The notes: generated by a model from the sequence alone, not told the origin. Positions 1,980 through 16,429 are shown, counted from the stretch's first letter. The stretch is DNA of 64,000 bases from Minisyncoccota bacterium (GCA_051306005.1 JBPPMJ010000003.1:249396-313395); one strand, 5' to 3'. Translations and numbers: made by a program.

Positions 1980-2060
1980 GGAGTTTGATTTTTCATTTTT
2001 TGTATTATACAATAGCAGTGGAGATAATATATCTTTGTGTAAATTGTTGTAAAAAATAAT

Positions 2061-3428
2061 ATGGCAAAAACAAAAAACCAGGGTATGGGGATAATGGCTT
2101 CCGTGGTCATTGTTTTTTTGGCATTCAGTTCTTTTCTGGGGATTTCAGCCATTGTCACACACAATAGATTGACTCTATTACCAAATTCTTGGGCAGATGA
2201 TGAAAGAGATTCGGAAGAAGAAGATGAAGAAGAAGAAAATGAAGATTCGGAAGAGCCGGAAGAAAAAGAAGAAAATGAAGATTCAAAAAAGCAAGAAGAA
2301 ACCAAGAAAAAGAATGATGAACAGAGAAGAGAGCAGGAGAAAAAAGATGCGGAAAGAAAGTTGGAGTCTCAAAAGAAGGTAGCCGAAAAAATATACGAGA
2401 AAGAAGATGAAGGAGAGGAATATGAAGACGATGAAGTCAAAGATGACACTGAATCGGAAGATGTACCGGAGAGCGAACACGGTATGTATCAAGAAAAGGA
2501 CAAGACTCTTTTGAAATTACGTCAGGATATAGTGGAAGCCCAAAAGCATCTTTTGGAAAAACAGAAGGAGGGTACGGATACTTCATCGGCTTTGACACGT
2601 CTGAACTTGGCAGAGTCTGATTTGGAAAAAATAAGCATCGCTTTTGATACCAACAATTTGGAAGAAGCCAAAATGTTGACCAAGCAGGTTAAGAGGACAA
2701 CTCACTCTGTTCAAGAGGATTTGCACGATACCAAAAAAATTGCTGAAGAGATATCCAAAGTAGAAAAGCGCTTTGCTCAAGTAGCTGAAAAAATAGTCAT
2801 ACTGAATGATTTGCACGGCGATACGACTCTCTTCAAAAATCAACTTTCTTATTTGCAAGCAGATTTTTCTTTTTTTACGACTTTGTTGAGTATGTATCCC
2901 GATACGGTAACCCGTGATACAATCAGAGTCTTTGAAAAACGCGTGCAACGTTTGCAAAGTTTGATAGAAGCAAATATCATCGTTTTAGGAGGAGATGATG
3001 ACATATTGAAGCATTACGATGATGAGGCAGATGAGCTTTTCAAGGATATGGAATATGTCGCAGATTTTGTAGATGGGGATGACAATAATGTTTCCCACCA
3101 AGTGAGGGGCATAGCAACCGAACAAAAAATCGATTCCGTGATTCTGAAACAAAAATTGGCAGAAGCGAATTCGCGCAGTGCTTTGACCAAGACTTTGTTT
3201 GGTCCCGAAAGTGATGCTCTCGCTGTATTGAGTACCCAGGCGACGGCGATTGATAATCGGGCGACCACATTAGAAAATGTTGCCACTCAAATGACGGATC
3301 CCGCTGTCAAAGAAATCTTGATGAGTCAGGTATCAGTGTTGCGCAGTGAAGCCACCAAGTTACAGGCCTATATCACTGCTGAAAATAACACGTTTAATTT
3401 CGCTCACTGGTTTGCGAAGCTTTTCTAG
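2061..3428 (+). CDS. Hypothetical membrane-anchored protein with an acidic low-complexity region and long predicted coiled coil
   Basis: It has an N-terminal TM helix (IMASVVIVFLAFSSFLGISAIV) followed by the D/E-rich block DDERDSEEEDEEEENEDSEEPEEKEENEDSKK. The rest is K/E/Q-rich heptad-like sequence. I recognise no catalytic motif. Confidence 0.55.
   Translation: MAKTKNQGMGIMASVVIVFLAFSSFLGISAIVTHNRLTLLPNSWADDERDSEEEDEEEENEDSEEPEEKEENEDSKKQEETKKKNDEQRREQEKKDAERKLESQKKVAEKIYEKEDEGEEYEDDEVKDDTESEDVPESEHGMYQEKDKTLLKLRQDIVEAQKHLLEKQKEGTDTSSALTRLNLAESDLEKISIAFDTNNLEEAKMLTKQVKRTTHSVQEDLHDTKKIAEEISKVEKRFAQVAEKIVILNDLHGDTTLFKNQLSYLQADFSFFTTLLSMYPDTVTRDTIRVFEKRVQRLQSLIEANIIVLGGDDDILKHYDDEADELFKDMEYVADFVDGDDNNVSHQVRGIATEQKIDSVILKQKLAEANSRSALTKTLFGPESDALAVLSTQATAIDNRATTLENVATQMTDPAVKEILMSQVSVLRSEATKLQAYITAENNTFNFAHWFAKLF
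2197..2300 (+). repeat. Imperfect GAA/GAT-rich coding tandem repeat (unit gaaaatgaagattc occurs twice) encoding the acidic tract
   Basis: The string gaaaatgaagattcggaagagccggaagaaaaagaagaaaatgaagattc is readable directly. It creates a spurious Lys-rich ORF (2197..2382) in another frame. Confidence 0.45.
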
Positions 3429-3447
3429 GACACCATCCAATTCTAGC

Positions 3448-3476
3448 TTGACATTTATGCAAAAAAGTGCTATTAT
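3448..3476 (+). promoter_or_regulatory. Sigma70-like promoter (TTGACA-17-TATTAT) for the gene at 3558
   Basis: TTGACA lies at 3448-3453, followed by a 17-nt spacer and TATTAT at 3471-3476. A GGGAGG Shine-Dalgarno precedes the ATG at 3558. Confidence 0.5.
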
Positions 3477-3557
3477 AAAAAGCTACTTTTGACTGGTTCA
3501 AAAGTATGACAAAATGGTTCTTTGAACATATGATGATTTTCTTGGGAGGATATATCC

Positions 3558-4175
3558 ATGAAACTGAAGCATTGCGTCATCGCCTCTGTTGCAACCGTGA
3601 CCTGCTGGACGTCCGATGTCCACGCTGATGAAGAAACTCCTCAAAAAGAGGAATCCTGGTTTTCGGGTTCATTACAAACCACGCGTTACGGTCAGGATTA
3701 TCAACCGTGGGAAGTATATGGCGAGGGGGAATTGACAGAGAAGCTTTCTGGGACCGTGGATATCATTACCGCACACGGGTACACAGAAGTGACAGCTGGT
3801 CTGGCCTACTATATTACACCGAATTTTGAAGTCGGCTTGAGTGTCGGTGGGGCACGGTATCTATCCGATACAGACAACAATGAAAGTATCCATCGGACGA
3901 TTGCGGGGTTTGTCTATCTGGCAACAGACAAGACGGTTACCGAAGTGACCGTGGAGCATTATGCGGATGATACCAATCCCTGGTACTACCAAGCATACAC
4001 AGAGTATGCTATCAGCGATGATGTCATGGTCGGTGTATACGGAGAGAAAGGTCCAGGTATCGGTCCGCGCGTCAGTTGGTCTCCAGGAGAACACGTCAGT
4101 CTCTGGATGGCGGTTCCGCTTGTTGATAGTGATACGGAAACATCAATGGTCGGTGGTATACGGATCACTTTCTAA
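3558..4175 (+). CDS. Secreted beta-barrel-like protein (signal peptide; OmpW/OmpA-like 8-strand pattern; C-terminal Phe)
   Basis: A signal peptide (MKLKHCVIASVATVTCWTSDVHA) leads the protein. Alternating hydrophobic/polar stretches follow (YYITPNFEVGLSVGGARYL, VMVGVYGEK). The terminal strand VGGIRITF ends in Phe, as in outer-membrane beta-barrels. Confidence 0.45.
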   Translation: MKLKHCVIASVATVTCWTSDVHADEETPQKEESWFSGSLQTTRYGQDYQPWEVYGEGELTEKLSGTVDIITAHGYTEVTAGLAYYITPNFEVGLSVGGARYLSDTDNNESIHRTIAGFVYLATDKTVTEVTVEHYADDTNPWYYQAYTEYAISDDVMVGVYGEKGPGIGPRVSWSPGEHVSLWMAVPLVDSDTETSMVGGIRITF

Positions 4176-4200
4176 GAAGCAACTTTGTCCATCAGACAAC

Positions 4201-4239
4201 CAACCTGTGTTCGCATGTTCGAATACAGGTTGTTTTTTT
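4201..4239 (+). terminator. Rho-independent terminator after the gene ending at 4175
   Basis: An 8-bp stem (caacctgt / acaggttg) encloses a 16-nt loop and is followed by TTTTTTT at 4233-4239. Confidence 0.6.
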
Positions 4240-4284
4240 GCGCGTTTTTATGATATACTTTCAGAGTAGCGTTATTATATCGTT

Positions 4285-5220
4285 ATGGATAAGAAATCAA
4301 AATTATTCTTCTTGATTTTTTTCCTGATTCTTACGGGAACAATCATGGTGACGTACTATCGGTATGTCGTGTTACATGACTACATAATTCAAGGAAGGTC
4401 AGAGTGTGATCCCTTTACCGAAGCCTGTTTCCTGTCTGTTTGTGACTCTGCGTCTGGTGAAGAATGTGCCAACAACACAGAAGAAGACACCACCTATTAT
4501 AAATTACAACAACGGAATGCTAAAAACATTCCGTTTTGTTATTCTCAGGACGAAAATTGCGATATGTGGACTTGTTCTCCTGATGAAAAAGATTGTTATG
4601 TTACTTTGTGCGATGAGACGACGGCACTAGCAGAAGACACCTCATGCAATGACCCCGTGTCTTACACTGCAGAGCATCCTCCTGAAGAAATGCTCGCAGA
4701 AGAAGATACAGAAAACCAAGAGGACTCAGTATCGGCAGAGACGGAATATTATGAGAGTAAAGATTTTTCTTTTGGTATTACGTACCCCGTTGAATGGATG
4801 CGGGCGGAGATGTCTGAGGCACGTGGTGATACGGATCGTGGAATACTGTTGTTGGAACAAACAGAAGAAACGGTGGATGCAGATTCTGCTTTGATAACCA
4901 TCATCTTTACGCCCGATATCACTCAAGTAACCCATACTTCACCAGACGCTCCACAAGATATCATTGAATACGGACAAGACCCGATGTTTACCGCCGTCCG
5001 TCCCATAACCTTCAACGGAGAGACAGCATTTATCGGGACACTTTCTGCCGATGCAAGTCAGAAAATCATTGTTATCAAGCACAAGCAACATATCTATCAA
5101 ATCCGTTATGACGGTTTGGGTGATCACATGGCTGAAATTGATACCGCTATTCAGTCCTTTGTTTTCCTCGATACCCAATCAGCGGAGAAACTTGTCAATA
5201 CGTCGATCGAAGCGCATTGA
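4285..5220 (+). CDS. Hypothetical membrane-anchored protein with a Cys-rich extracytoplasmic module
   Basis: It has an N-terminal TM helix (LFFLIFFLILTGTIMVTYY). About 12 Cys fall within about 100 aa (CDPFTEACFLSVCDSASGEEC…CYSQDENCDMWTCSPDEKDCYVTLCDE…SCNDP). Confidence 0.5.
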   Translation: MDKKSKLFFLIFFLILTGTIMVTYYRYVVLHDYIIQGRSECDPFTEACFLSVCDSASGEECANNTEEDTTYYKLQQRNAKNIPFCYSQDENCDMWTCSPDEKDCYVTLCDETTALAEDTSCNDPVSYTAEHPPEEMLAEEDTENQEDSVSAETEYYESKDFSFGITYPVEWMRAEMSEARGDTDRGILLLEQTEETVDADSALITIIFTPDITQVTHTSPDAPQDIIEYGQDPMFTAVRPITFNGETAFIGTLSADASQKIIVIKHKQHIYQIRYDGLGDHMAEIDTAIQSFVFLDTQSAEKLVNTSIEAH

Positions 5221-7039
5221 CGATGACAACGATGTCAATACATTCTTGGATAATGGCACCGGAGAGAGGGGAAATATAGCCGAGAGATGCCAGAAGCATG
5301 CCAAATACTGAGAGCCCTATACCAATGATGATACTTTGTAGCGCGACGGTATATGAACGGCGTCCGATATGGATAGCATCACGGATGAGCCATGCATCTC
5401 GTCCAAAAATAGCAACGTCCGCTGCCTCAATTGAAGCGCTATTCTCTGTTCCGGAGAAAACAATACCGATATCCGCCAGTGCGAGTGCTGGCGCGTCGTT
5501 CATCCCGTCACCCACCATCCCGACTAATTTTCCTTCTGCCTGATGACGTTGGATGAGAGCAGTTTTGGTCTCTGGACGGCAGTCAGCGTAGATTGGCAAT
5601 TTGAACGGACCAAATATCCGTTCCGCATTGACCTTTCTGTCACCGGTCAAGATGCCGAGCGTGTAACCTCGTTCTTGTAGGTACGTGAACAATTCATCGG
5701 CATCGGACTTGAGAATATCATCAAAAAAGAAACGAGCGATCAGGCGGGATTCATGATGAAGGTCAACATTCAGATCAACCACGATACCACTTTCGGTGTT
5801 GTCTTGAGCGCGGATGATACGATATGATGTACCATTGACCGTTCCAAAAATACCTTCGCCCATTTTCTCTGTAACATTCTGAGCATCCGGAATATCTGTC
5901 AAGGACACTGTAAAAGCTTTATTGAACGCTTTGGCGATGGGATGAAACGAATAGCGCTCCAGGGCAACGGCGATAGCGAGTGCGTCATCTTGGGAGTAGG
6001 TATGATCATGGACTATTATTTTTTTGAGATGAGGTTCTCCGAGAGTGAGTGTCCCCGTTTTATCAAAGAAAAATGTTTTGGTTTTTGCGAGAAGCTCCAG
6101 AACAAACGGACTTTTGATAATGATATTTTTGCGCGCAGCTTTGTTGAGTCCGCCGATAAAACTCACGGGTACAGCGATAAGGAGGGGACACGGTGTCGCA
6201 ATGACCAGGACTGCGAGAAAACGTTGCCAGTCATTCGTAACCCCATAAGCTCCAATGGCGAGTGCCAACGCAAAGAAAGTAAAGAAAAAATTATAACGTT
6301 CCGCCAAACGTACCATTGGTGAAGGGTGTTGTTTCCCTTCCTCTACCAACGACAAAATTTTGCGATATCCAGAACTCTCAAAATTACCTATGACTTCTAT
6401 CTGCAGAGCCTCACCGACATTAATAGATCCACTTTGTAGAATAGATTTTTCTCGATAAGTGACCGGCTCTATCTCTCCCGTCAAATTGGCTTCGTTGAGA
6501 ATGGCCCGTTTGGATATGAGTTTTCCCTCAAAAGCCAACATTTCTTGGGGACGGATTATCAAAACATCACCATTATTGACGGATTGAATGGGCATTTCAA
6601 TTGTATTGTCACCCCGTTGCACCAAAACTTTTTTGGGAATATTGGCAAAGAGACCACGCAGGGTTTTTTCGGCATGACTCGAGCCGTATTTTTCAAGTCC
6701 GGCACTGACCGCTATCATGAGAGAAATAACAGCCCCAGCCAAGATAGCATCCAACCAGAGTGCCGTGATGAGCGTGAGAAAAGCGAGGTAGTCCAAGTTC
6801 CATTTGTTCATCCTGATCCGTTCGTAGGATTCACCCAAGAGTTGCACGATGCCAATGAGAATGGCAATACCATAAAACCATGAGATACCCGACACAAATG
6901 CAGTGAGAATACTTATACAGACCAATAAAGGGAAGCGAAATTCCCGACTACGCACAATATCCAACAAACTAATCATATAAGAAAGACACCAAAAGATTAT
7001 ATTGTCTATTGTATCAGAAAATACGTTAAAAAAATGCAA
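5195..7039 (-). CDS. Cation-transporting P-type ATPase (no N-terminal metal-binding domain)
   Basis: It carries the TGE loop (NLTGEIEP), the DKTGTLT phosphorylation motif (FFFDKTGTLTLG) and the GDGxNDxP hinge (MVGDGMNDAPALALADIGIVF). A PCP-like TM motif (ATPCPLL) is present. The track start at 7039 is a TTG only 2 nt from the divergent wzt ATG. An internal ATG at about 6976 (MISLLDIV…) is the more likely start. Confidence 0.85.
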   Translation of the reverse strand: MHFFNVFSDTIDNIIFWCLSYMISLLDIVRSREFRFPLLVCISILTAFVSGISWFYGIAILIGIVQLLGESYERIRMNKWNLDYLAFLTLITALWLDAILAGAVISLMIAVSAGLEKYGSSHAEKTLRGLFANIPKKVLVQRGDNTIEMPIQSVNNGDVLIIRPQEMLAFEGKLISKRAILNEANLTGEIEPVTYREKSILQSGSINVGEALQIEVIGNFESSGYRKILSLVEEGKQHPSPMVRLAERYNFFFTFFALALAIGAYGVTNDWQRFLAVLVIATPCPLLIAVPVSFIGGLNKAARKNIIIKSPFVLELLAKTKTFFFDKTGTLTLGEPHLKKIIVHDHTYSQDDALAIAVALERYSFHPIAKAFNKAFTVSLTDIPDAQNVTEKMGEGIFGTVNGTSYRIIRAQDNTESGIVVDLNVDLHHESRLIARFFFDDILKSDADELFTYLQERGYTLGILTGDRKVNAERIFGPFKLPIYADCRPETKTALIQRHQAEGKLVGMVGDGMNDAPALALADIGIVFSGTENSASIEAADVAIFGRDAWLIRDAIHIGRRSYTVALQSIIIGIGLSVFGMLLASLGYISPLSGAIIQECIDIVVIVNALRSTY

Positions 7040-7041
7040 AA

Positions 7042-8370
7042 ATGCAAAAAATAAGGTACAATAGACAGATGATGAACAAAGATATTGCCATTTCAGTCAA
7101 AAACGTCAGCAAGGCCTTTCGTATACCTCACGAGAAAGTGAGTAGTGTTCGTGGTGCAGTTGTTTCGGCATTCAATAGAAATAGGGGCTATGAAGAATTC
7201 CAAGCCCTTGACGATGTTTCTTTTGAAGTGAAGAAAGGGGAATTCTTTGGCATCATTGGACGCAATGGAAGCGGTAAAAGCACGCTTCTGAAGGTCCTTG
7301 CCAGCATCTATCAAGCAGATAGTGGAAAAGTACAGATAAGCGGTCTCATATCGCCATTTTTGGAGCTCGGAATAGGTTTCAATCCCGAACTCTCTGGCAG
7401 GGACAATGTCTATCTGAACGCCACCGTGCTGGGAATGACTAAAAAGCAGATTGATGAGAAATTTGATGCTATCGTAGCATTTTCCGAGCTGGAGCGCTTC
7501 ATTGATCAGAAATTGAAGAATTATAGCAGTGGGATGCAGGTCCGTCTCGCTTTCTCCGTCTCCATCTACGCGAATCGCGATATACTGCTTATGGACGAGG
7601 TACTGGCTGTGGGGGACAGCAATTTTCAGAGTAAGTGTTTGGAGGAATTTGCCAAATATCGAGATATGGGGCGGACCGTCATCATCGTCACTCATGACAT
7701 CTCTGTCGTACAGAGGTATTGTGATCGAGCGATGCTCCTCCGCAATGGAAAGATCCTGAAAATCGGAAAAGCTGAAGAAGTGGGCAACGCCTATGTCTAT
7801 GAGAATATGAGCGACGAAGAACGACGGATGGTAGATGAACAGAAACAAAAATTGGAAAACGCCGAGAAGAATCTGAAAAATTTGAGAGGCAAAGAACTCG
7901 TGAGGGAAAAGCAGAGAATCGCGGAAGAAAAGAAGAAGCTCGAAGAAGAACGCAAAAACAAAGTCGCCGAAATAACGAAAGTAGAATTTTTGGACAAAAA
8001 TGGGAATATAAAGAATGTTTTTGAAACAGGGGACGATATTACGGCTAGGATATACTACTCAGCAAAAAAGAAAATAGAAAAACCAGTGTTTGGAGTCGCT
8101 ATTCATACCTCTGAAGGAATTCTTATTACTGGACCAAATACCAAAACATCGAATGTTAATATAGATTATGTTGAGAGTGATAGTTATATAGATTTTATAA
8201 TTTTAGGCAATAAACTTTTTACAGGTAACTATAGATTTACGGCAGCGATTTTTAATTGGGAATGTATAATACCATTTGACTTTAAGGATAGGGCATATGT
8301 CTTTAAGGTCGTTTCTCAAGAAGAAAATCAGAATGGTTTAATGAAAATGGATGTGCTATGGAAAAAATAA
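7042..8370 (+). CDS. wzt: Wzt/TagH/KpsT-type polysaccharide-export ABC transporter ATP-binding protein with a C-terminal coiled-coil and putative carbohydrate-binding extension
   Basis: The N-terminal domain matches this family: VKNVSKAFRIP…LDDVSFEVKKGEFFGIIGRNGSGKSTLL (Walker A). It continues LISPFLELGIGFNPELSGRDNVYLN and NYSSGMQVRLAFSV, the ABC signature. It also has ILLMDEVLAVGDSNFQ (Walker B) and IIVTHD (H-loop). About 170 extra C-terminal residues follow. These are a K/E coiled coil and then a beta-rich segment, similar in size and position to the Wzt C-terminal glycan-binding domain. Confidence 0.85.
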   Translation: MQKIRYNRQMMNKDIAISVKNVSKAFRIPHEKVSSVRGAVVSAFNRNRGYEEFQALDDVSFEVKKGEFFGIIGRNGSGKSTLLKVLASIYQADSGKVQISGLISPFLELGIGFNPELSGRDNVYLNATVLGMTKKQIDEKFDAIVAFSELERFIDQKLKNYSSGMQVRLAFSVSIYANRDILLMDEVLAVGDSNFQSKCLEEFAKYRDMGRTVIIVTHDISVVQRYCDRAMLLRNGKILKIGKAEEVGNAYVYENMSDEERRMVDEQKQKLENAEKNLKNLRGKELVREKQRIAEEKKKLEEERKNKVAEITKVEFLDKNGNIKNVFETGDDITARIYYSAKKKIEKPVFGVAIHTSEGILITGPNTKTSNVNIDYVESDSYIDFIILGNKLFTGNYRFTAAIFNWECIIPFDFKDRAYVFKVVSQEENQNGLMKMDVLWKK

Positions 8371-9332
8371 ACGAAGAGCAATTGAGAAGAGATATGGTTT
8401 TTCATTTATATGGAAGATTTTCTTTTATTAAGGAAATAATCAATAAAAACCGTATTGCAAATGAAAAACTAAAAATACTGGATGTGGGTGGTCGCGGAAA
8501 CTTGTTGAAGCAGTTTTTTCCTAACGACGCTGTTTTTTATTTAGATCCATTTATTGATTCTACTGATGAGAACTTCATCAAGGGAGATGGTTGTGCCATG
8601 CCTCTTGAAAATGAGAGCTTTGATTGGGTAGTTTCTACGGATGTATTTGAACATATACCACAGGAAAAACGAGAAGATTTTTTAAACGAGAAGATTCGCA
8701 TTGCAAAACGAGGTGTTATCTTGGTAGCGCCATTCTATACGCCTGAGGTTGCGCAAGCAGAAATAAATGCCAACGAAAATTATAAATTACTCCATAATGG
8801 AGATGATCATATCTGGCTACGAGAGCATATAGAAAATGGACTTCCTGATCCAGTGAATTTTGAACAATCCCTGAAGAATAAGAATCTTCCATTTCAAAAA
8901 TTACATAACAATAGATTGTTCTTATGGCAAACCCTTTTAGGTATTGAGTTTCTAATTGATGAAAATCATACCGAGAATACAAATAGGTATTTTGAAGATT
9001 TTAATTATTTTTACAATACTGAAGTAGCTCCATATGATAATCAGGAACCATCGTATAGAAAAATATATTTTATCAAAAAAGACAAAGTTTTACAGAATAT
9101 TGAAGTAACCAGTAAAACACTTGATGATAAGTTATTTTTAAAGGCAATTAAGAATGGGATAGATGTAGTTAATAGAATTTATCTTGAGAATAGAGTATCT
9201 AGAGATCAAGAAATACTGAAATGTAATGAGACTATCAATCAAAAAGATCAAGAACTTACTTTGGTTAAGTCATCAAAGTTTTGGAGAATAAGAGATTATT
9301 ATATTAAGATTAAAAATTTTTGGCATGGATAA
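8358..9332 (+). CDS. Class I SAM-dependent methyltransferase (Methyltransf_11/23-like)
   Basis: Motif I is KILDVGGRGNLLKQ and the post-I acidic residue is in FYLDP. Motif II/III is DWVVSTDVFEHIPQEKREDFLNEKIRIAKRGVILVAPF. It overlaps the wzt stop by 13 nt. The C-terminal tail is SSKFWRIRDYYIKIKNFWHG. Confidence 0.75.
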   Translation: MEKINEEQLRRDMVFHLYGRFSFIKEIINKNRIANEKLKILDVGGRGNLLKQFFPNDAVFYLDPFIDSTDENFIKGDGCAMPLENESFDWVVSTDVFEHIPQEKREDFLNEKIRIAKRGVILVAPFYTPEVAQAEINANENYKLLHNGDDHIWLREHIENGLPDPVNFEQSLKNKNLPFQKLHNNRLFLWQTLLGIEFLIDENHTENTNRYFEDFNYFYNTEVAPYDNQEPSYRKIYFIKKDKVLQNIEVTSKTLDDKLFLKAIKNGIDVVNRIYLENRVSRDQEILKCNETINQKDQELTLVKSSKFWRIRDYYIKIKNFWHG

Positions 9333-9351
9333 AAGTTTTTATTGAATATTT

Positions 9352-10167
9352 ATGAAATATCAAGAGAGTAAGTTGGCTCATGCGTATCTTGATGGTTTAT
9401 GTGGTTTGGAGATTGGGGGAAGCGCACATAACTCATTTGGCCTCAATACCAGGAATGTTGATTATTCCGCTAGTACGAGTACGGCATTTAAACAAGAAGA
9501 AGTAGTGATGTGTGGTGATTTAATGCATGTAGATATTGTCGCTCCTGGGGATAATATACTCGTTCCTGATGAGAGTGAAGACTTTATTATAAACTCACAT
9601 GTCATAGAGCACTTTCCCGATCCCATTAAGGCACTGAAAGAATGGTATCGAATTGTAAAGCGAGGCGGTTACATCTATATTATTGCTCCACACAAAGAAA
9701 GAACATTTGATAAGAATCGATCGAGAACAACACTTCAGGAACTTATTGAAAGACATGAATCTACTGAAATTTCTAAAGTAGATCCCCATGTACACTACTC
9801 CGTTTGGATAACGGAAGATTTAGTGGAATTAATTACGTATCTTGGCTGGAAAATCTCGTTTGTTCAAGATATTGATGATAAAGTTGGCAATGGTTTTGTT
9901 GTTGTTATACAAAAAAATACACAGAGTAATTTAAATATTGATATAGATCTTCATTTGAAGCGTGATTTATTCGAGTATTCAGATATTTTATTTAAAGATG
10001 CTAAAAGTATTGAAAAAATAATAGGCAGAATTATAGCTGATTCTAAAAAACAACATGTGATGGAAAATTCAAAATTTTGGAAATTGCGAGGTATGTATTT
10101 ATCTTTCAAGGAATTTTTTATTGCAAATAGAAAAGATAAACCAAAATTTAGAGGGAAGAATATTTAG
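9352..10167 (+). CDS. Class I SAM-dependent methyltransferase-like protein
   Basis: It has LEIGGSAHN and DFIINSHVIEHFPDPIKALKEWYRIVKRGGYIYIIAP, a Methyltransf_11-like core. The C-terminal tail NSKFWKLRGMYLSFKEFF is paralogous to the preceding gene. Confidence 0.6.
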   Translation: MKYQESKLAHAYLDGLCGLEIGGSAHNSFGLNTRNVDYSASTSTAFKQEEVVMCGDLMHVDIVAPGDNILVPDESEDFIINSHVIEHFPDPIKALKEWYRIVKRGGYIYIIAPHKERTFDKNRSRTTLQELIERHESTEISKVDPHVHYSVWITEDLVELITYLGWKISFVQDIDDKVGNGFVVVIQKNTQSNLNIDIDLHLKRDLFEYSDILFKDAKSIEKIIGRIIADSKKQHVMENSKFWKLRGMYLSFKEFFIANRKDKPKFRGKNI

Positions 10168-10184
10168 TAAATAATGAGATAGCT

Positions 10185-11531
10185 ATGTCTAAAAAACGTC
10201 ACGCACAAATAAAAGAAGTGAAACGGCTTTGCAAAAAAGCAGTTACTGTTTTTAAAGAACAAGGAATGGGTATTTTATTCGAACGAACTAAATTTGAAAT
10301 CTCCAGACGACTATTCATAATAAAAACTGAGGGTGAAAAAACAAGAAAAACAAGTATCATACCTGTTCGAGAATTAATGCGAAATAAATTCATCAATACT
10401 CGACCCATTGATAATATAAGAGTAAAAAGAGGTTCTTTTCGCTTAAATATTGTTACTGATAGTTTACAAAAAGACAGTCTCTTCGGAGGAGTTGCTACGT
10501 CTTTGGTTTTAGCCACGCTTTTTGTAAATAAATATGATATGCCCTTGCGAATTATTACAAGGACAACTGGAGCAAATTCAAAAGCGTATATAACCTTTTT
10601 AGAGTTGATGAAAATAAAAAAACCAAAAGAAGTGGAGTTTTTTTCGGATTATGACTCAATGTACACAAAAAGTAACTTCAAGCTTGAGGTCTCTGAGATG
10701 GATATTTTTCTTGCTACATCTTGGTGGACAGCTGAAGCTGTGCGAAGCGTTAATTTAAGGGAGAAATTTTTCTATATCCTGCAAGAGGTTGAAACTTTCT
10801 TTTATCCAAATGGTGATGAACAATACCGCTGTGAAAGTATATTGAAGAGTCATGATATACATTTTATTCTTAATTCTAAATTGCTCAGTGATTATTATAA
10901 GAACAATAATTTTGAACAAGTAAACAACAACAGTGTATATTTTGAGCCAGCTTTTCCGATTACCATTTATTCACCGTATAGAGTTGTATCAAAACAGAAA
11001 TCTAAATATAAATTATTTTTTTATTCAAGACCAAATAATACTAGAAATCTTTATTTCACGGGTTTGAGGATCCTTGATGAGGCTCTATTGAGAGGAATTA
11101 TACAATCAGATGAATGGGAAATTTGTTTTGCTGGAGCGTCTGTTGATAATATTGAATTTTCAACAGGTGTAAAACCAGTAATGTGTGGCCATATGAAATG
11201 GGAAGAATATGTTGATTTTCTTAAAACAGTGGATCTTGCTTTCTGTTTAATGTTTACTCCACACCCAAGCTATCCGCCCTTGGACGTTGCTAGTTCAGGA
11301 GGGATTGTTCTTACTAATAAGTTTGCCAATAAGAAAACTCTTGATAATTACTCTAAGAATATTATCTGTGAAGATTTAGATATCGAGTCTATGATGAGAG
11401 GGTTTAAAAGAGCCGTCATTTTGGCAAAGAATCATGAAATAAGAACAAAAAATTATACAGAAAATACTATAGATAAAGATTGGAATGCCACGTTTGAGCA
11501 TGTCTTTGATTTTATGAATAACAAAAAATAG
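10185..11531 (+). CDS. Putative glycosyltransferase (unassigned family; resembles WsaF-like GT-B enzymes)
   Basis: At about 448 aa it has no TM segment and has an alternating alpha/beta pattern. The segment KYKLFFYSRPNNTRNLYFTGLRILDEAL looks like a GT-B N-domain. The low-GC context sits between methyltransferases and another GT. I have no decisive motif for family assignment. Confidence 0.35.
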   Translation: MSKKRHAQIKEVKRLCKKAVTVFKEQGMGILFERTKFEISRRLFIIKTEGEKTRKTSIIPVRELMRNKFINTRPIDNIRVKRGSFRLNIVTDSLQKDSLFGGVATSLVLATLFVNKYDMPLRIITRTTGANSKAYITFLELMKIKKPKEVEFFSDYDSMYTKSNFKLEVSEMDIFLATSWWTAEAVRSVNLREKFFYILQEVETFFYPNGDEQYRCESILKSHDIHFILNSKLLSDYYKNNNFEQVNNNSVYFEPAFPITIYSPYRVVSKQKSKYKLFFYSRPNNTRNLYFTGLRILDEALLRGIIQSDEWEICFAGASVDNIEFSTGVKPVMCGHMKWEEYVDFLKTVDLAFCLMFTPHPSYPPLDVASSGGIVLTNKFANKKTLDNYSKNIICEDLDIESMMRGFKRAVILAKNHEIRTKNYTENTIDKDWNATFEHVFDFMNNKK

Positions 11532-11543
11532 AATAATCTTGTT

Positions 11544-12740
11544 ATGTATAATTTTGAAAATTCTAAAATTACTCAAGAAGTTAATCCGTGGAATACAAGA
11601 ATTGAAAAGAGGTTATCAATTCTTGTAAATAATTCTTCGCGAAAAAAGGTTGTTTATATTTATGAGGCAGCTGATACGAGTACATTTCGGTATAGGGCAT
11701 ATAATATGTGCCAATCATTATCCTATAGTAATAAGTACGAGGGGGTGTTCTTTTTTGAAGAAGAATTGGATATTATTTTTCAGTATCTTGATTATGCAAG
11801 TATAGTTATTTTTGTAAGGACTCGTTGGTCTGAATCAGTGGCTAATTTCTTTTATATAGTTAAGAAAAGGGGAATACCAACGCTTTTTGACTCTGACGAC
11901 TTGGTATTTGACCTTGAGTCATTGCCATTGCTCATGAACACCTTGGGGATAGACTTGAGTCGATCTGAGAATTATAGCCACTGGTTTTCTTATGTATCAC
12001 GCTTATGGCTCATGGGGAGTATGTGCGATGGATACATCGGGACAAATGAATTTTTAAAAAATAGGATGGAAACTATTTTTAATAAGCCCGCATTTGTGGT
12101 GAATAATTTTCTTAATAACGAGCAGTTAGAGGCATCTATGGAGATTTTTAATAAAAAGAAAAGCCTGACAAATTCGGAACCATTTACAATAGGGTACTTT
12201 AGCGGATCACCTTCTCATGTCAATGACTTTAAAAAAGTGGCGTCTGAAATAAAGGATCTCATGGATACATATGATGACATCCAATTAAGTGTTACTGGTT
12301 TTATGGAATTTCCAAGCTATCTAAAAGAGCATATTAAGTCTGGAAGGATTACATATACGAGCCTTGTGGATTTTTTGACACTACAGGTAAAGATAGCGAG
12401 TGTGGATGTTAATATCGTACCACTTGTGGTCAATGAATTTACTAACTGTAAATCAGAGCTGAAATTTTTTGAAGCTGCGATTGTAGGCACTGTTACTTGT
12501 GCGTCACCAATTTATTCTTACAAAGATAGTATCCAGGATAATAAAACTGGGTTTTTGTGTATGGATGGTGAGTGGTTTGTGGCGATTGAGAATATCTATA
12601 AAAAAAGAATAAGCGATGATATGGTGGCATTAGCGAATGAGTATTGTTTAGAACGGTATTCTCCAAATAAATCAGCCCAGATTCTAGAAGATATTTTTGA
12701 TATTATTTTATCAAAAATACTAATAATGAGAGATAACTGA
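11544..12740 (+). CDS. Putative GT-B fold glycosyltransferase
   Basis: The C-terminal region ELKFFEAAIVGTVTCASPIYSYKDSIQDNKTGFL resembles the GT4 E-x7-E nucleotide-sugar binding helix. There is no TM segment. Confidence 0.4.
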   Translation: MYNFENSKITQEVNPWNTRIEKRLSILVNNSSRKKVVYIYEAADTSTFRYRAYNMCQSLSYSNKYEGVFFFEEELDIIFQYLDYASIVIFVRTRWSESVANFFYIVKKRGIPTLFDSDDLVFDLESLPLLMNTLGIDLSRSENYSHWFSYVSRLWLMGSMCDGYIGTNEFLKNRMETIFNKPAFVVNNFLNNEQLEASMEIFNKKKSLTNSEPFTIGYFSGSPSHVNDFKKVASEIKDLMDTYDDIQLSVTGFMEFPSYLKEHIKSGRITYTSLVDFLTLQVKIASVDVNIVPLVVNEFTNCKSELKFFEAAIVGTVTCASPIYSYKDSIQDNKTGFLCMDGEWFVAIENIYKKRISDDMVALANEYCLERYSPNKSAQILEDIFDIILSKILIMRDN

Positions 12741-12764
12741 AAGCTTCTGATTCGAATAACTCTA

Positions 12765-13261
12765 ACGATAGACTGTAAAATCTGATATCGTAAACTCCTC
12801 AGCTCGGTCTGTCGGGTCGATTCTTAGCTCAATGAGTTTTTGTCCCAACTTTTTCTCGAGAAGATCAAAATTAATGAGCACATGATCAGATTTTGTATTA
12901 TCTGCGTATTTTTCGCTATACCAACCAATTGCAGGCTCACTTGCGAAGGAATAGTAGAGCCTGGCAAGTCCTGTTCTTCCTGATATGTTAAATTTTAAGC
13001 CCTTAAGCCCATCAGTATTAATGATGATTTGTGCGAATCGTTTGATGTTGAGATTAAAGTGTTATGATCACTTTCTTGGATATTGATAGTATTCTTCTCT
13101 GGTAACGTAAAGGAGATAGTCAAAAATTGTATAGAAGTGTCCGCCTGTTTTTCTATTATAAAATCTGTATTTCGATAAATCCGACGCCACCAGTTACGAG
13201 GATATTCATAGAACGTGTGAGAAAAAAATATCGTTATCATCAATTGTATTTTCCTCGCCAA
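12765..13261 (-). pseudogene. Frameshifted gene remnant of unknown family
   Basis: Two minus-strand frames are open and protein-like. One is the 88-aa ORF 12995..13261 (…FYEYPRNWWRRIYRNTDFIIEK…). The other is a 99-codon stop-free stretch at 12765..13061 with no ATG: …NIKRFAQIIINTDGLKGLKFNISGRTGLARLYYSFASEPAIGWYSEKYADNTKSDHVLINFDLLEKKLGQKLIELRIDPTDRAEEFTISDFTVYR*. The two frames overlap at 12995-13061. The remnant lies at the right edge of the low-GC cassette. Confidence 0.35.
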
Positions 13262-13977
13262 TCATTCAAGCGGATTTTGAGGAGAGCAAAAAACATATTG
13301 ATAGGGTCTCGGAGGATACTCACATTGGTATTGCGAAGGTCTCGAAGAATAGTGACTGGGAGCGTGGTGATACGAGTGTGTAATCGTCGCGCGAGAAATA
13401 TCAGCTCGGCGTCAAAGGCAAAACGCTGAACGGTGATTTTGGAAAAGAGTGCTAGCGCTGTTTCACGGCGGAAAAGCTTGAAACCACACTGTGTATCGGG
13501 ATATCGCACGTTGTTGAGGATGAGCGCTTGGAGCAGGTAGAAACCTCTGGCAAAAATAATCCGATACCAGGAAATGGGTTCATGAAATTTGGATCCACCG
13601 ATGAGTCGTGAGGCAATAACCATGTCTGATGTATCCAGAGCCGTGAGGAAACGGCCGAGTTCGGTGATGGCGATGGTGAGATCGGCATCCAAAAAGAGGA
13701 TAGGATCGTACTGTGAAGCGAGGACACCAGCTTTGACGGCAGAGCCTTTGCCTTGATTGACGGGAAAAGTGATGAGTACCAACGGGATTTCCGCGTGTTC
13801 TTTTTGGAGTTTTTTGACAATTTGATGAGTATGGTCTGGACTGCCATCGACGACAACGATGATTTCATAGCGGTCAAAGTGAGCGGTCAGGTAGCGTGCC
13901 ACAATCAGGATGTTGGTCGTGATGACGTCCGCTTCCTTGTAACAGGGGAGAATAACGGAGATTTCAGGATAGGTCAT
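13240..13977 (-). CDS. GT2-family glycosyltransferase (soluble DPM1/dolichol-phosphate-mannose synthase-like)
   Basis: The N-terminal half is ISVILPCYKEADVI…YEIIVVVDGSPDHT…NQGKGSAVKAGV…ILFLDADL. The likely start is the ATG at 13975-13977 (MTYPEIS). The track ORF extends further, to 14019. Confidence 0.8.
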   Translation of the reverse strand: MTYPEISVILPCYKEADVITTNILIVARYLTAHFDRYEIIVVVDGSPDHTHQIVKKLQKEHAEIPLVLITFPVNQGKGSAVKAGVLASQYDPILFLDADLTIAITELGRFLTALDTSDMVIASRLIGGSKFHEPISWYRIIFARGFYLLQALILNNVRYPDTQCGFKLFRRETALALFSKITVQRFAFDAELIFLARRLHTRITTLPVTILRDLRNTNVSILRDPINMFFALLKIRLNDWRGKYN

Positions 13978-14097
13978 AGAAGGGATAGTAAGAAATACAG
14001 GTATAGTATAGCATATCAAGAGATGGCTTTGCAGTTGTCTATTGGGGGTGAGTACGGTATACTGGAGGCATGTTTAATTTAATAGGTATTTTAGTAT

Positions 14098-15039
14098 ATG
14101 GAATCGACGAGTCCATTTTTATCCGTTATTGTGCCGTTATACAATGAGGCTGGTAATGTGATTGAGTTGCATCGTAAAATTCACACGGCGATGCAAAAAA
14201 TAGGGAAGTCTTTTGAAATTATTTTTATTGATGATGGTTCGACGGATACGACATTTGAAGAGACACGGAACCTCTCTCCGCTCACATTGATTGTGTTTCG
14301 CAAGAATTTTGGACAGACAGCGGCTTTTGATGCGGGTATCAAACAGGCGCAAGGGAATATTATTATCACGCTGGATGGTGATTTACAGAATGATCCGGCG
14401 GATATTCCGTTGTTGCTTGCCAAGATGGACGAGGGATATGACATCGTGTCTGGTTGGCGCTATAAGCGTCAAGATCCTTTGAGCAAGAAAATCCCGTCAC
14501 GTATTGCCAATATTTTGCGTAAAATGCTCATTCACGATAATATTCATGATTCAGGGTGCAGTCTCAAAGCCTATAAGCGAGAATGTTTCCGCGATGTGGA
14601 TCTGTTTGGTGAGATGCATCGTTTCATTCCTGCTATTTTGCAATTGGATGGCTATCGGGTTGGCGAGGTCAAGGTCTCTCATCATCCGCGTGTGCACGGT
14701 GTGACCAAGTACAATTGGAAACGCGGGTTCAAAGGTTTGGTGGATATGATTTCCATCTGGTTTTGGCGCAAGTATTCGTATCGTCCTTTGCATCTCTTTG
14801 GCGCGAGTGGCATATTGCTCTCCAGTATCGGTGGATTGATACTGCTTTGGATGATTGTAGAAAAGTTTTATTTCAATGCGTCTCTTGCGGATCGGATTTG
14901 GCCGTTGATCGGCATTTTCTTTCTCTTGGTGGGTATGCAACTTTTTGTTTCGGGTCTTTTGGCGGATATCGCTGTCCGAAGCTATTATCAAGTGCATCAA
15001 CGGATGAATTATACGATTCGTGAGACACGAAAACAATAA
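14098..15039 (+). CDS. Polyprenyl-phosphate glycosyltransferase (GT2; GtrB/ArnC-like, with two C-terminal TM helices)
   Basis: The GT2 core is LSVIVPLYNEAGNV…FEIIFIDDGSTDTT…NFGQTAAFDAGI…IITLDGDLQNDP. The C-terminus has two hydrophobic helices (LFGASGILLSSIGGLILLWMIV and IWPLIGIFFLLVGMQLFVSGLL), as in bactoprenol glucosyltransferase GtrB and ArnC. Confidence 0.85.
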   Translation: MESTSPFLSVIVPLYNEAGNVIELHRKIHTAMQKIGKSFEIIFIDDGSTDTTFEETRNLSPLTLIVFRKNFGQTAAFDAGIKQAQGNIIITLDGDLQNDPADIPLLLAKMDEGYDIVSGWRYKRQDPLSKKIPSRIANILRKMLIHDNIHDSGCSLKAYKRECFRDVDLFGEMHRFIPAILQLDGYRVGEVKVSHHPRVHGVTKYNWKRGFKGLVDMISIWFWRKYSYRPLHLFGASGILLSSIGGLILLWMIVEKFYFNASLADRIWPLIGIFFLLVGMQLFVSGLLADIAVRSYYQVHQRMNYTIRETRKQ

Positions 15040-15054
15040 ACAAGAATAAAATTT

Positions 15055-16362
15055 ATGAAATTGGCGTTTATCGGTACGGGGTATGTGGGATTGGTATCGG
15101 GAGTATGTATGGCAGAGTTGGGACATACGGTCATCTGCGCTGATAGAGACAAGAACAAAATTGCAAAACTGAAGAAGGGTGTGATGCCGATTTATGAATT
15201 GGGATTGGAGGAGCTTGTTGCCAAAAATGTCTCTGAAGGACGCTTATCTTTTACAACGTCGGTCGGTAAAGCAATCAAGTATGTTGATGTTGTATTTAGC
15301 GCAGTTGGAACGCCCGAAGATCCCAAGACTGGCAAAGCGGATATGCAATATGTCATTGCGGTGGCCAATATGTTTGCCAAGCATCTCAATGGATACAAAA
15401 TTCTTGTTAATAAGTCTACAGTGCCAGTGGGGACGGCGGATCAGTGTCGGGATATCATCTTGCACACGGGTAATAGTAAGTATGAGTTTGATGTGGTGTC
15501 CAATCCAGAATTTTTGCGCGAGGGGGCAGCGATCAAGGATTTTCTCAATCCTGATCGTGTCGTTGTTGGCGTATCATCTGATCGTGCCAGAGTGATCATG
15601 GAAAAAATTTATCGACCGATTACTCGTTCTGGCCGTCCAGTCATCGTGACCGATATCCGTAGTGCCGAATTGATCAAGTATGCTTCCAATGCTTTTCTTG
15701 CTACCAAGATTGCGTTTATCAATGAGATTGCTAATTTCTGTGAGAAGGCAGGTGCCAATGTAAAAGAAGTGGCACGGGGCATGGGAGCGGACAGTCGTAT
15801 CGGGTCGCGTTTTCTCTATGCTGGTATCGGGTACGGTGGGTCGTGTTTCCCCAAGGATGTCCAGGCGTTGTTGCAAACCGGCAAAGAATACGGACATGAG
15901 TTTCAAATTATTCAGGCGGTGGATCGTTCCAATGATATGCAAAAGATGCTTCCGATGAATTTTTTGAAGGGACACTTCAAGCGTTTAAAAGGTAAGACAA
16001 TCGCAGTGTGGGGATTGTCGTTCAAACCGCGGACTGATGATGTACGTGAAGCACCAGCTTTGTATGTCATCACGTCTCTTCTCAAGGCAGGCGCTCATGT
16101 CCAAGTATTTGATCCTGTGGCGATGGAAAGTTTTTGTCGTGTCTTGCCAGACAAGCGTATTCAATATATGCAGAGTGCATACGAGGCGGTCCAGGATGCA
16201 TCGGCATTGCTTGTGATGACCGAATGGGATGAGTTTCGTACGATAGAGTATGCGGAACTTTTGTCACGGATGCGAGAGCGAGTCATTATTGATGGACGCA
16301 ACATCTTTGAACGACGTGAAGCCGAGGCAGAAGGCTTCCTCTATTTTGGCATCGGCACATAG
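15055..16362 (+). CDS. ugd: UDP-glucose 6-dehydrogenase
   Basis: The NAD-binding N-terminus is MKLAFIGTGYVGLVSG. The catalytic Cys region is GYGGSCFPKDVQAL. The C-terminal UDP-binding domain has KGKTIAVWGLSFKPRTDDVRE. Confidence 0.85.
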   Translation: MKLAFIGTGYVGLVSGVCMAELGHTVICADRDKNKIAKLKKGVMPIYELGLEELVAKNVSEGRLSFTTSVGKAIKYVDVVFSAVGTPEDPKTGKADMQYVIAVANMFAKHLNGYKILVNKSTVPVGTADQCRDIILHTGNSKYEFDVVSNPEFLREGAAIKDFLNPDRVVVGVSSDRARVIMEKIYRPITRSGRPVIVTDIRSAELIKYASNAFLATKIAFINEIANFCEKAGANVKEVARGMGADSRIGSRFLYAGIGYGGSCFPKDVQALLQTGKEYGHEFQIIQAVDRSNDMQKMLPMNFLKGHFKRLKGKTIAVWGLSFKPRTDDVREAPALYVITSLLKAGAHVQVFDPVAMESFCRVLPDKRIQYMQSAYEAVQDASALLVMTEWDEFRTIEYAELLSRMRERVIIDGRNIFERREAEAEGFLYFGIGT

Positions 16363-16429
16363 GATACGTTGTTATCGAGAAAGTGTGCAACTGATGTAAT
16401 CACCCAAATAAATGTCAGATTGGCTATAA

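Follow-up and report, generated by a model that had tools for sequence, protein, structure and literature searches.

The wzt gene and the genes that follow it

The DNA analysed here is a window of 64 kb from a metagenome-assembled genome of Moranbacteria/Minisyncoccota (source contig of 494 kb), and its subject is a wzt gene together with the surface-glycan genes downstream of it. The host is a Moranbacteria/Minisyncoccota bacterium of the candidate phyla radiation (CPR); the database lists the protein identical to the window's wzt product (P0001) under Minisyncoccota and close homologues under Moranbacteria. The wzt open reading frame (ORF) is listed from 7042, starts at 7069 in P0001, ends at 8370 on the plus strand and combines an ABC nucleotide-binding domain (NBD) with a Wzt_C carbohydrate-binding domain (CBD). 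In the following, L-numbers denote related loci or contigs from metagenomes and P-numbers related database proteins.

The NBD (7069–7770; Pfam ABC_tran E=2e-21; G+C content (GC) 0.454) has host-like codon usage and is regarded as the resident part of the gene. Its best sequence matches in the PDB are Wzt of A. aeolicus (8dku/7k2t, E=1e-63) and TagH/TarH (E=1e-50). It is followed by a Lys/Glu-rich helical linker (7771–7941), formed by a hinge helix and a helical hairpin (AlphaFold helices 235–271 and 275–296), by a conserved junction, EEERKNKVAEITKVEFLDKNGNIKNVFETG (7942–8031), which comprises the helix end and β-strands 1 and 2 of the C-domain, and by the type-specific part of the Wzt_C β-sandwich (8032–8370; GC 0.312; GC at third codon positions, GC3, about 0.25), which is regarded as imported. 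All change points found in wzt fall into the junction, which is the likely crossover zone. The AlphaFold model of the protein (pLDDT 83.7) shows the NBD, two long helices (residues 235–296) and a β-sandwich (300–432), and over residues 300–432 the C-domain is all-β with pLDDT values mostly above 90. An earlier first-pass annotation of this DNA had described the C-terminal extension as Wzt_C-like, and it is a real Wzt_C domain: PF14524 matches ORF residues 302–435 with E=5.4e-26 and 91.7 bits at a cut-off of 30.4, and the best Foldseek matches for the fold of both domains are full-length A. aeolicus WzmWzt (7k2t/8dku, E about 1e-35). The helical segment between NBD and CBD has about 60 residues in the Wzt of the window, and linker lengths of 5–53 residues are found among relatives.

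Four genes follow on the plus strand. MT1 (8358–9332), which overlaps the end of wzt by 13 nt, encodes a class I S-adenosylmethionine (SAM) methyltransferase ending in a coiled coil and the tail SKFWRIR (Methyltransf_11 E=7e-8), and MT2 (9352–10167) encodes a second class I SAM methyltransferase with an SKFWKLR tail (Methyltransf_11 E=9e-11). Apart from the common SAM-fold core and the tail both proteins are unrelated. The next gene (10185–11531) encodes a WsaF-like GT-B glycosyltransferase (GT), a putative rhamnosyltransferase, with matches to WsaF_C (E=4e-40, 137 bits) and WsaF_N (E=5e-14, 53 bits; cut-off 27 for both) and to the solved WsaF structure (PDB 2x0d, E=1.5e-37 over residues 84–419). 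A second GT, weakly GT4-like, is encoded at 11544–12740 (Glyco_trans_1_4 E=4e-5, under the curated cut-off).

A composition break inside wzt

In 400-nt windows, G+C falls from 0.44–0.47 to 0.26–0.36 between about 7,900 and about 13,200. A two-change-point maximum-likelihood fit of G+C over 4000–17000 places the left boundary at 7969 (2-log-likelihood support 7831–8005) and the right boundary at 13252 (support 13171–13333), with a GC of 0.444 to the left, 0.327 in the block and 0.457 to the right and a log-likelihood gain of 101. The 5 kb with the lowest GC of the window start at 8001 (0.328 compared to a median of 0.41). The first-pass annotation had noted by eye a GC drop near 7,950 and had placed it inside wzt, and both observations are borne out by the fit. 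The low-GC stretch does not stop at 12,740, as had been assumed, but extends about 500 bp further, to about 13250. The discontinuity, for which scans of G+C and tetranucleotides had been suggested as a check, is present in both measures: the most deviant tetranucleotide profiles of the window are those of the 3-kb windows at 8001–13000, with a TETRA z-score correlation of 0.36–0.40 versus a median of 0.70. The low-GC block as a whole (7969–13252, no strand assigned) is supported by the change-point fit and the tetranucleotide deviation and is reproduced in independent assemblies.

The break is also present in synonymous positions. GC3 is 0.25–0.33 in the four genes after wzt and 0.40–0.51 in the surrounding genes, and within wzt it changes from 0.51 to 0.26 after codon 309 (support 298–352), a change reached in 0 of 2000 permutations. 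Since Lys, Asn and Ile are frequent in the cassette proteins, codon choice was scored as a log-likelihood ratio conditioned on the amino acid, which takes out this confound. The comparison of the codon usage of both wzt parts, likewise suggested earlier, resulted in a ratio per codon of +0.147 for the NBD, as in host genes (+0.04 to +0.27), and of −0.109 for the C-domain, as in the four cassette genes (−0.106 to −0.123). Within wzt, the cumulated ratio peaks at codon 310 (nt 7971), and the composition break (7969–7971) falls within the conserved junction, at the start of β-strand 1 of the model.

For the individual parts, the first-pass annotation was right in describing the NBD as native and the C-domain, the methyltransferases and the GTs as AT-rich, but not in counting the coiled coil among the AT-rich parts. 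The GC3 of the linker is 0.51–0.55 and host-like; its low GC is confined to codon positions 1 and 2, where it appears AT-rich because the linker is Lys/Glu-rich. The helical linker belongs with the resident NBD part and not with the imported block, and the boundary, which had been proposed to separate NBD and coiled coil, is located after the coiled coil, at β-strands 1 and 2 of the C-domain (nt ~7942–8031). A promoter and terminator scan gave nothing above shuffled expectation, and a search for duplication of wzt sequence in the window found none.

Discordant relationships of the two parts of wzt

In a first comparison, 120 full-length Wzt homologues were cut into NBD, linker and C-domain. 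The nearest homologues of the NBD (87–90% identity) and of the linker (63–81%) have C-domains which are only 27–44% identical to that of the window, whereas the nearest homologues of the C-domain (72–74%) have NBDs of 73–83% identity and linkers that are mostly unrelated or missing. The comparison of loci gave the same picture. The loci nearest in NBD (88–89%) and linker (58–79%) carry unrelated C-domains (19–27%) and unrelated downstream genes, and those nearest in the C-domain (65–71%) carry more distant NBDs (79–88%), in most cases next to linkers that differ or are missing. That the two halves of wzt might have different best relatives had been raised in the first-pass annotation as a point to check, and this is what was found.

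Sliding identity along codon alignments shows how abrupt this change is. L001, L002 and L003 are about 85–95% identical to the window over NBD, linker and junction and then only 13–36%, whereas the C-domains of L004, L006 and L008 are 53–83% identical and these loci do not have the linker type of the window. The linkers of L001, L002 and L093 are 76–79% identical to that of the window, the C-domains being unrelated. The junction segment (7942–8031) is 77–93% identical across many C-domain types, and the residues following it are type-specific: the CBD of the window is 65–71% identical to CBDs of the same type (L004, L006, L008, L094, L172) and 13–31% to those of other types. Judged from these alignments, the wzt gene of the window is a chimera, i.e., a recombinant gene.

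A donor-type context and a gene remnant at the right end

The contig L172, reached through the best relative of MT1, contains CBD, MT1, MT2, the WsaF-like gene and the second GT gene in the same order, with 70, 71, 65, 68 and 67% identity to the window, respectively. It is low in GC throughout (cassette 0.323, other 6.5 kb 0.341; window block 0.327), and its DNA alignment to the window runs on beyond the stop of the last GT gene. At this side, 20 nt after the cassette, L172 carries an intact, convergent gene for a PMT_2-like protein of 619 residues. In a tblastn search, residues 530–619 of this protein match window positions 13034–12765 with 82% identity (E=2e-48) and residues 509–529 match 13099–13037 in another frame with 62% identity, and the interval 12765–13099 contains short broken ORFs only. 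What remains in this interval (minus strand; GC 0.376) is the 3′ part, truncated and frameshifted, of a gene for a PMT_2-like membrane glycosyltransferase; it explains the low-GC "intergenic" tail of 500 bp. The remnant was recognised only through L172, as a tblastx search of the 500-bp tail versus the first set of loci gave no match. It is the strongest single evidence for the insertion of a contiguous foreign segment over divergence in place.

Recurrent exchange in the clade

For the clade, 57 distinct full-length Wzt from 80 metagenome loci and from the loci gathered earlier were compared, and CBD types were defined by single-linkage clustering at 45%. At least 22 CBD types are carried on NBDs that are 60–100% identical, and pairwise identities of NBD and CBD are hardly related (Spearman rho 0.17). 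NBDs with 96–100% identity occur with CBDs of 23–31% identity and with different downstream genes. Sister or close contigs show where the similarity ends: in the pair L094/L093, identity is 99.6% along 8,744 bp, as far as wzt codon 80, and 87.5% from codon 108 to codon 344, after which the two do not align; L097 and L099 are 98.3% identical through codon 338, L119 and L129 99.2% through codon 266, and L100 and L104 85% through codon 321. In these alignments the breakpoints cluster at both ends of the linker. This shows that crossovers at this site of wzt happen, and equivalent swaps occurred many times in the clade. An insertion of 20–23 residues in the NBD, past the Walker A region (PKKGT..PVKSGGARPPKAEFHG; wzt codons ~81–108), is present in L004 (10001–11299), L006, L007 and L094; in the pair L094/L093 it coincides with the step from 99.6 to 87.5% and thereby marks a further crossover point inside the NBD.

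The step in composition is likewise found in the whole family. The GC of the NBD exceeds that of the CBD in 57/57 genes (mean +0.107; GC3 higher in 54/57) and that of the downstream 4 kb in 45/46 loci. The GC of the CBD tracks that of the downstream cassette (r=0.76, slope 1.06), the GC of the NBD only weakly (r=0.43). The window has the largest host-to-cassette GC step among 31 loci, 0.12. Because the step within wzt is seen in all 57 genes it is a property of the family and alone no proof of a recent event; the evidence for an event in the genome of the window comes from the homology mosaic and the gene remnant.

Some genes of the clade lack the CBD. Of the closely related wzt genes, roughly one in five is NBD-only (245–265 residues, NBD 65–76% identical; L128, L140, L146, L149, L151, L152, L156, L158–L160, L162, L165, L168, L169), presumably encoding a cap-independent exporter of the same clade. 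A search with the type-specific CBD by itself, limited by its word index, gave two matches, one of them with the look of a stand-alone CBD. The idea of a split Wzt was rejected, as this apparent case is a gene call cut by the contig end. L172 (1–437), L175 (16–483) and P0042 end inside wzt near the CBD junction, and the "stand-alone" Wzt_C proteins reported there by gene callers are truncation artefacts. Such contig ends fit strain-level forks in assembly graphs at the CBD junction.

Linkage of the CBD and MT1

The genes of the cassette are not linked to the same degree. An MT1 orthologue is the first gene after wzt in 8/10 loci of the same CBD type versus 0/45 of other types (Fisher p=3.7e-8), and in the five closest loci of the type (L004/L005, L006, L007, L008, L094; C-domains 65–71%) it has the identical overlap of 13 nt. 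Two more distant loci of the same type lack it in this first position, and loci of other CBD types have different genes in the position of MT1. Within the type, pairwise identities of CBD and MT1 correlate (Pearson r=0.76). An MT2 orthologue was found in L172 only (65%), being absent from L004, L173, L006 and L008. The GT module varies: the WsaF-like gene has orthologues in L172 (68%), L173 (53%) and L004 (54%), where the second GT gene always follows it (67, 53 and 55%), whereas L006 and L008 contain a GT4-GT2 fusion of 801 residues. Since CBD and MT1 are linked while the GT modules vary, CBD and MT1 form the stable unit and the polymerase module a looser second layer.

These data qualify the earlier proposal that the Wzt C-domain, the methyltransferases and the GTs are one specificity module swapped as one unit. 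The low-GC block does behave as an exchanged unit and the five-part cassette recurs in L172; within it, the tight coupling is limited to CBD and MT1, the GTs vary and MT2 is confined to the window and L172.

Both methyltransferases share a further feature. The element Q.KDQEI..MKSSKFWKLR..YLK.K, which follows the coiled coil, forms the C-terminus of MT1 (9237–9332) and MT2 (10033–10120) and also occurs in wzt-adjacent cassette proteins of at least seven other CBD types. Besides the window, the element was noted in the loci L006, L008, L094, L098, L100, L103, L105, L114, L117, L119, L132, L138, L139 and L163. In long proteins it lies between the terminator-like domain and the GT domains. Possibly this element is a tail for membrane binding or docking that the proteins have in common.

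Flanking genes and the wider window

To the left, divergent from wzt, lies a P-type ATPase gene of host composition (5195–7039, minus strand; Pfam E1-E2_ATPase, Hydrolase). To the right a convergent GT2 glycosyltransferase gene follows, again of host composition (13240–14019, minus strand; GC 0.47, GC3 0.51; Glycos_transf_2 E=3e-24). In relatives, wzm is positioned directly upstream of wzt (L006, L008, L173) or 9–10 kb upstream (L003–L005). In L003–L005, Y1 transposase-like, DUF3800, 23S_rRNA_IVP, Schlafen/AlbA_2 and LCAT-lipase genes are located between wzm and wzt, and this gap looks like a second insertion hotspot. Moreover, the first ~120 nt of wzt are repeated upstream, at the starts of small ORFs flanking DUF3800 genes, in L002 (1345–1465, 2631–2751), L007 (617–737, 3447–3565, 4733–4851), L093 and L094. 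These repeats look like footprints of insertions that duplicate the 5′ end of wzt.

The window is otherwise rich in wall-glycan genes, including genes for LCP, TagA/WecG, Wzy_C and a flippase, five PMT-like genes and two UGDH genes. Four genes of the PMT/PMT_2 family are found at 18597–20240, 22035–23963, 23970–26339 and 26409–28202, among them an ORF of 565 residues without assignment (20296–21993) and near them the genes for LPG_synthase_TM, two UDP-glucose-dehydrogenase-like proteins, Wzy_C, LCP and TagA/WecG. This density of surface-glycosylation genes is unusual for a small genome. At 2001–2800, inside an ORF without Pfam match (2061–3428), the GC skew reaches 0.42 and the AT skew 0.52 at lower GC; this purine-skewed part is probably a low-complexity charged region.

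Origin of the chimeric gene

The observations taken together make it probable that wzt is a recombinant of a resident 5′ part and a contiguous glycan cassette of about 5.3 kb from a low-GC relative, the latter belonging to a Wzt-led, ABC-transporter-dependent system. The composition is discontinuous at both ends of the block, the relationships of its parts are discordant, and a donor-type context with a scar at the boundary exists, as is characteristic for an exchanged block. The resident DNA would comprise the 5′ 900 nt of wzt, i.e., NBD and helical linker, and the imported block the type-specific CBD, the two methyltransferases, the WsaF-like GT, the second GT and what is left, at its 3′ end, of the PMT_2-like gene that adjoined the cassette in the donor. 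On the left, the crossover would lie in the 30-residue junction conserved across CBD types, and the right end would cut through the neighbouring PMT_2-like gene of the donor.

Several points weigh against this interpretation. Part of the GC step is a property of the gene family (mean NBD GC 0.429, compared with 0.385 on the upstream and 0.339 on the downstream side). The ATPase has orthologues (53–69% identical) in 10 further genomes of Moranbacteria, which are in no case located beside wzt, in a synteny collection of one-genome-per-species contigs that does not include the window's own genome; because this synteny is absent elsewhere, the status of the 5′ part as resident relies on composition and mosaic and not on a conserved position. 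No ABC2_membrane protein was found among the window ORFs scanned against Pfam and no tblastn match with Wzm of three relatives, and wzm may lie outside the window. The L172 contig ends inside wzt, leaving its NBD uncovered. No close donor was found, as the best relative of the cassette is only 65–71% identical, suggesting that, measured against the sampled diversity, the event is no recent one or that the donor lineage is unsampled; that a 12-point GC gap persists despite this donor identity is only partly explained. Finally, MT1 has no sequence match in the PDB at E≤0.1 and no relationship to WbdD, and in the absence of a characterised relative its function as terminator is assigned from its context; the PDB matches of MT2 are generic SAM methyltransferases only, and NCBIfam gave only sub-threshold generic matches for MT1 and MT2 and, like the PDB, no informative relative for the second GT. 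The methyl-cap chemistry and the match of cap and CBD are proposed by analogy with characterised systems.

Some of these points would equally suit an arrival of the whole wzt gene with its cassette, or their joint movement to the place beside the ATPase, the GC step then being a habit of the family that marks no crossover. The NBD has a higher GC than the CBD in every gene and than the upstream 4 kb in 28/36 loci, the ATPase orthologues lack an adjacent wzt, the usually adjacent wzm is missing from the window, and it is the NBD that L172 leaves uncovered. We consider this unlikely. The codon usage of the NBD is that of host genes and the codon usage of the CBD that of cassette genes, with the switch at codon 310; the nearest NBD and linker relatives bear other CBD types and the nearest CBDs sit on more distant NBDs, mostly with different linkers; and sister contigs prove crossovers at exactly this site of wzt. 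Because the GC of the CBD follows the cassette and not the NBD, the family-wide step itself is best explained by repeated swaps.

A transfer would not be needed if the CBD and the downstream genes diverged rapidly where they are, driven by diversifying selection and a mutational bias towards AT. The richness of the cassette proteins in Lys, Asn and Ile would be in line with this, and polysaccharide loci are AT-rich in many bacteria. This is very improbable, as the break holds at third codon positions and in amino-acid-conditioned codon usage, the rankings of NBD and CBD are discordant (with nearly identical NBDs on CBDs of 23–31% identity) and a broken fragment of a donor-context gene is present at the right end; the sister contigs contradict it as well. 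Finally, since the source is a metagenome-assembled genome and the contigs of relatives frequently break off within wzt (L172, L175, P0042), the assembly could have joined two strains or species at a conserved stretch of wzt. Host-like sequence returns beyond the block, so two such switches would be required, and the sequence was recovered in assemblies of three other sequencing runs: L010, an independent assembly of another run, is 100% identical over 6791–13363, spanning both junctions, and L009 covers window positions 2007–9915 with one mismatch. As independent assemblies match across both junctions, the block is not an assembly chimera; we regard this explanation as exceedingly improbable.

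Proposed function and significance

In characterised systems, a terminal methyl, phosphomethyl or Kdo cap stops the elongation of the glycan and is read by the CBD of Wzt (PMC9445017; the concept is also summarised in PMC3482155). For the recombinant wzt and its cassette we propose a comparable sequence of steps. The two GTs would polymerise a chain, probably containing rhamnose, on a polyprenol carrier; rhamnose is suggested by the WsaF similarity and by dTDP-rhamnose-type genes that adjoin the related cassette in L173, none being present in the window. MT1, possibly together with MT2, would methylate the non-reducing end and thereby halt elongation, and the CBD might recognise the methyl cap and license export by Wzm/Wzt, for which the genetic linkage of this CBD type to a single methyltransferase family gives indirect support. 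An LCP enzyme such as that encoded at 48610–49818 could attach the glycan to the wall. As the host is a CPR bacterium, the product is expected to be a wall or surface glycan and not the O antigen of a lipopolysaccharide (LPS). The reader (CBD) and the writer (MT1) of the cap would be inherited as a pair because both must match, and with the swap point inside wzt, one crossover would replace CBD and MT1 and keep the NBD that is fitted to the resident Wzm.

More speculatively, the NBD-CBD junction of wzt might be a dedicated cassette-acceptor site in Moranbacteria and perhaps in the wider CPR, with the conserved NBD and the β1-β2 junction as a selected recombination arm, wzt as organiser of glycan switching at the population level, and the shared coiled coil with SKFWKLR tail as a docking element for incoming cassettes. 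We consider this a tentative and rather doubtful extension. If true, a single crossover would install a matched set of cap reader, cap writer and polymerase, in dozens of types, and switching might be driven by pressure of phages or of host attachment on these episymbionts. A scan of viral contigs for wzt relatives found none, so that there is no sign of a phage vehicle.

To our knowledge, the cell surface of the CPR/Patescibacteria, whose life is spent attached to other microbes, is almost uncharacterised. The locus suggests that CPR bacteria use a cap-dependent pathway of the Wzm/Wzt type, diversified by swaps of matched readers, writers and polymerases inside the transporter gene. The natural CBD-terminator pairs, with at least 22 CBD types on near-identical NBDs, could teach the rules of cap recognition and be used for chimeric exporters in glycoengineering. 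For annotation, the GC step within wzt is usable as a marker of the cassette boundary, and for metagenome assembly the wzt junction is a fork point of strain variants.

Comparison with known systems

The first-pass annotation had described the locus as an O-antigen system. The architecture is indeed that of a cap-dependent Wzm/Wzt system, but the term "O antigen" holds by analogy only, the host being a CPR bacterium. In E. coli O8/O9a, work by Cuthbertson and colleagues in 2005 in J Biol Chem and by Clarke and colleagues reportedly showed that the C-domain of Wzt sets the substrate specificity. The polymannan systems of E. coli O8/O9a and Klebsiella O3/O5 resemble the locus in the conserved, interchangeable NBD with a divergent, specificity-setting C-domain and in a methyltransferase-type terminator (WbdD in these species) encoded beside the transporter, so that reader and writer must match. 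They differ in that the host of the window is a CPR bacterium without LPS, that its wzt is not preceded by wzm and that a helical segment of about 60 residues separates NBD and CBD; moreover, the candidates for the role of WbdD are short methyltransferases of one domain in which no similarity to WbdD is detectable. At the locus described here, sister contigs provide the evidence for an exchange point within wzt. In the literature searched, no such description for the enterobacterial loci and no paper on Wzt in CPR bacteria or on intragenic wzt recombination was found, which is no proof of novelty.

The best sequence and fold match for both domains is WzmWzt of A. aeolicus (7k2t, 8dku, 8dky). 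Its CBD binds the 3-O-methyl mannose/rhamnose cap that terminates a rhamnose/mannose polymer, and its linker has 9 residues (PMC9445017). This methyl-cap and rhamnose chemistry is the same as predicted here from the methyltransferases and the WsaF-like GT. Both proteins are only 31–32% identical overall, the sequence similarity of the CBDs is marginal (E=0.4), and the cap-binding residues are not mappable onto the CBD of the window with confidence.

The slg locus of Geobacillus stearothermophilus directs the synthesis of an ABC-transporter-dependent polyrhamnan terminated by O-methylation. It has in common with the window an envelope without outer membrane and a WsaF-family homologue (E=1.5e-37), to which the identity is limited. 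There, the multifunctional WsaE contains the methyltransferase as one of its domains, whereas two stand-alone methyltransferases are encoded here, and the window contains neither an S-layer target nor dTDP-rhamnose genes.

Finally, low-GC O-antigen and capsule loci are swapped via conserved flanks, such as galF/gnd in Enterobacteriaceae, dexB/aliA in pneumococcus and regions 1 and 3 of the kps loci. As in these cases, an AT-rich glycan cassette is replaced as a block via a conserved homology arm at its edge, and diversity arises by swapping rather than by point mutation. At the locus described here, the left arm is no flanking gene but the 5′ two-thirds of wzt, of which the 3′ third belongs to the cassette, and because homology arm and cassette share the gene, a chimeric protein results from every exchange; on the right side a neighbouring gene was cut in an illegitimate manner. 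As a summary, the locus represents known biology, i.e., the logic of cap-dependent Wzm/Wzt export and of a swappable low-GC cassette, in a new clade and with unusually clean evidence. New are the CPR host, the intragenic swap point with sister contigs, the scar, the scale on which CBDs vary while the NBD is conserved, a long helical linker and a wzt that is separated from wzm.

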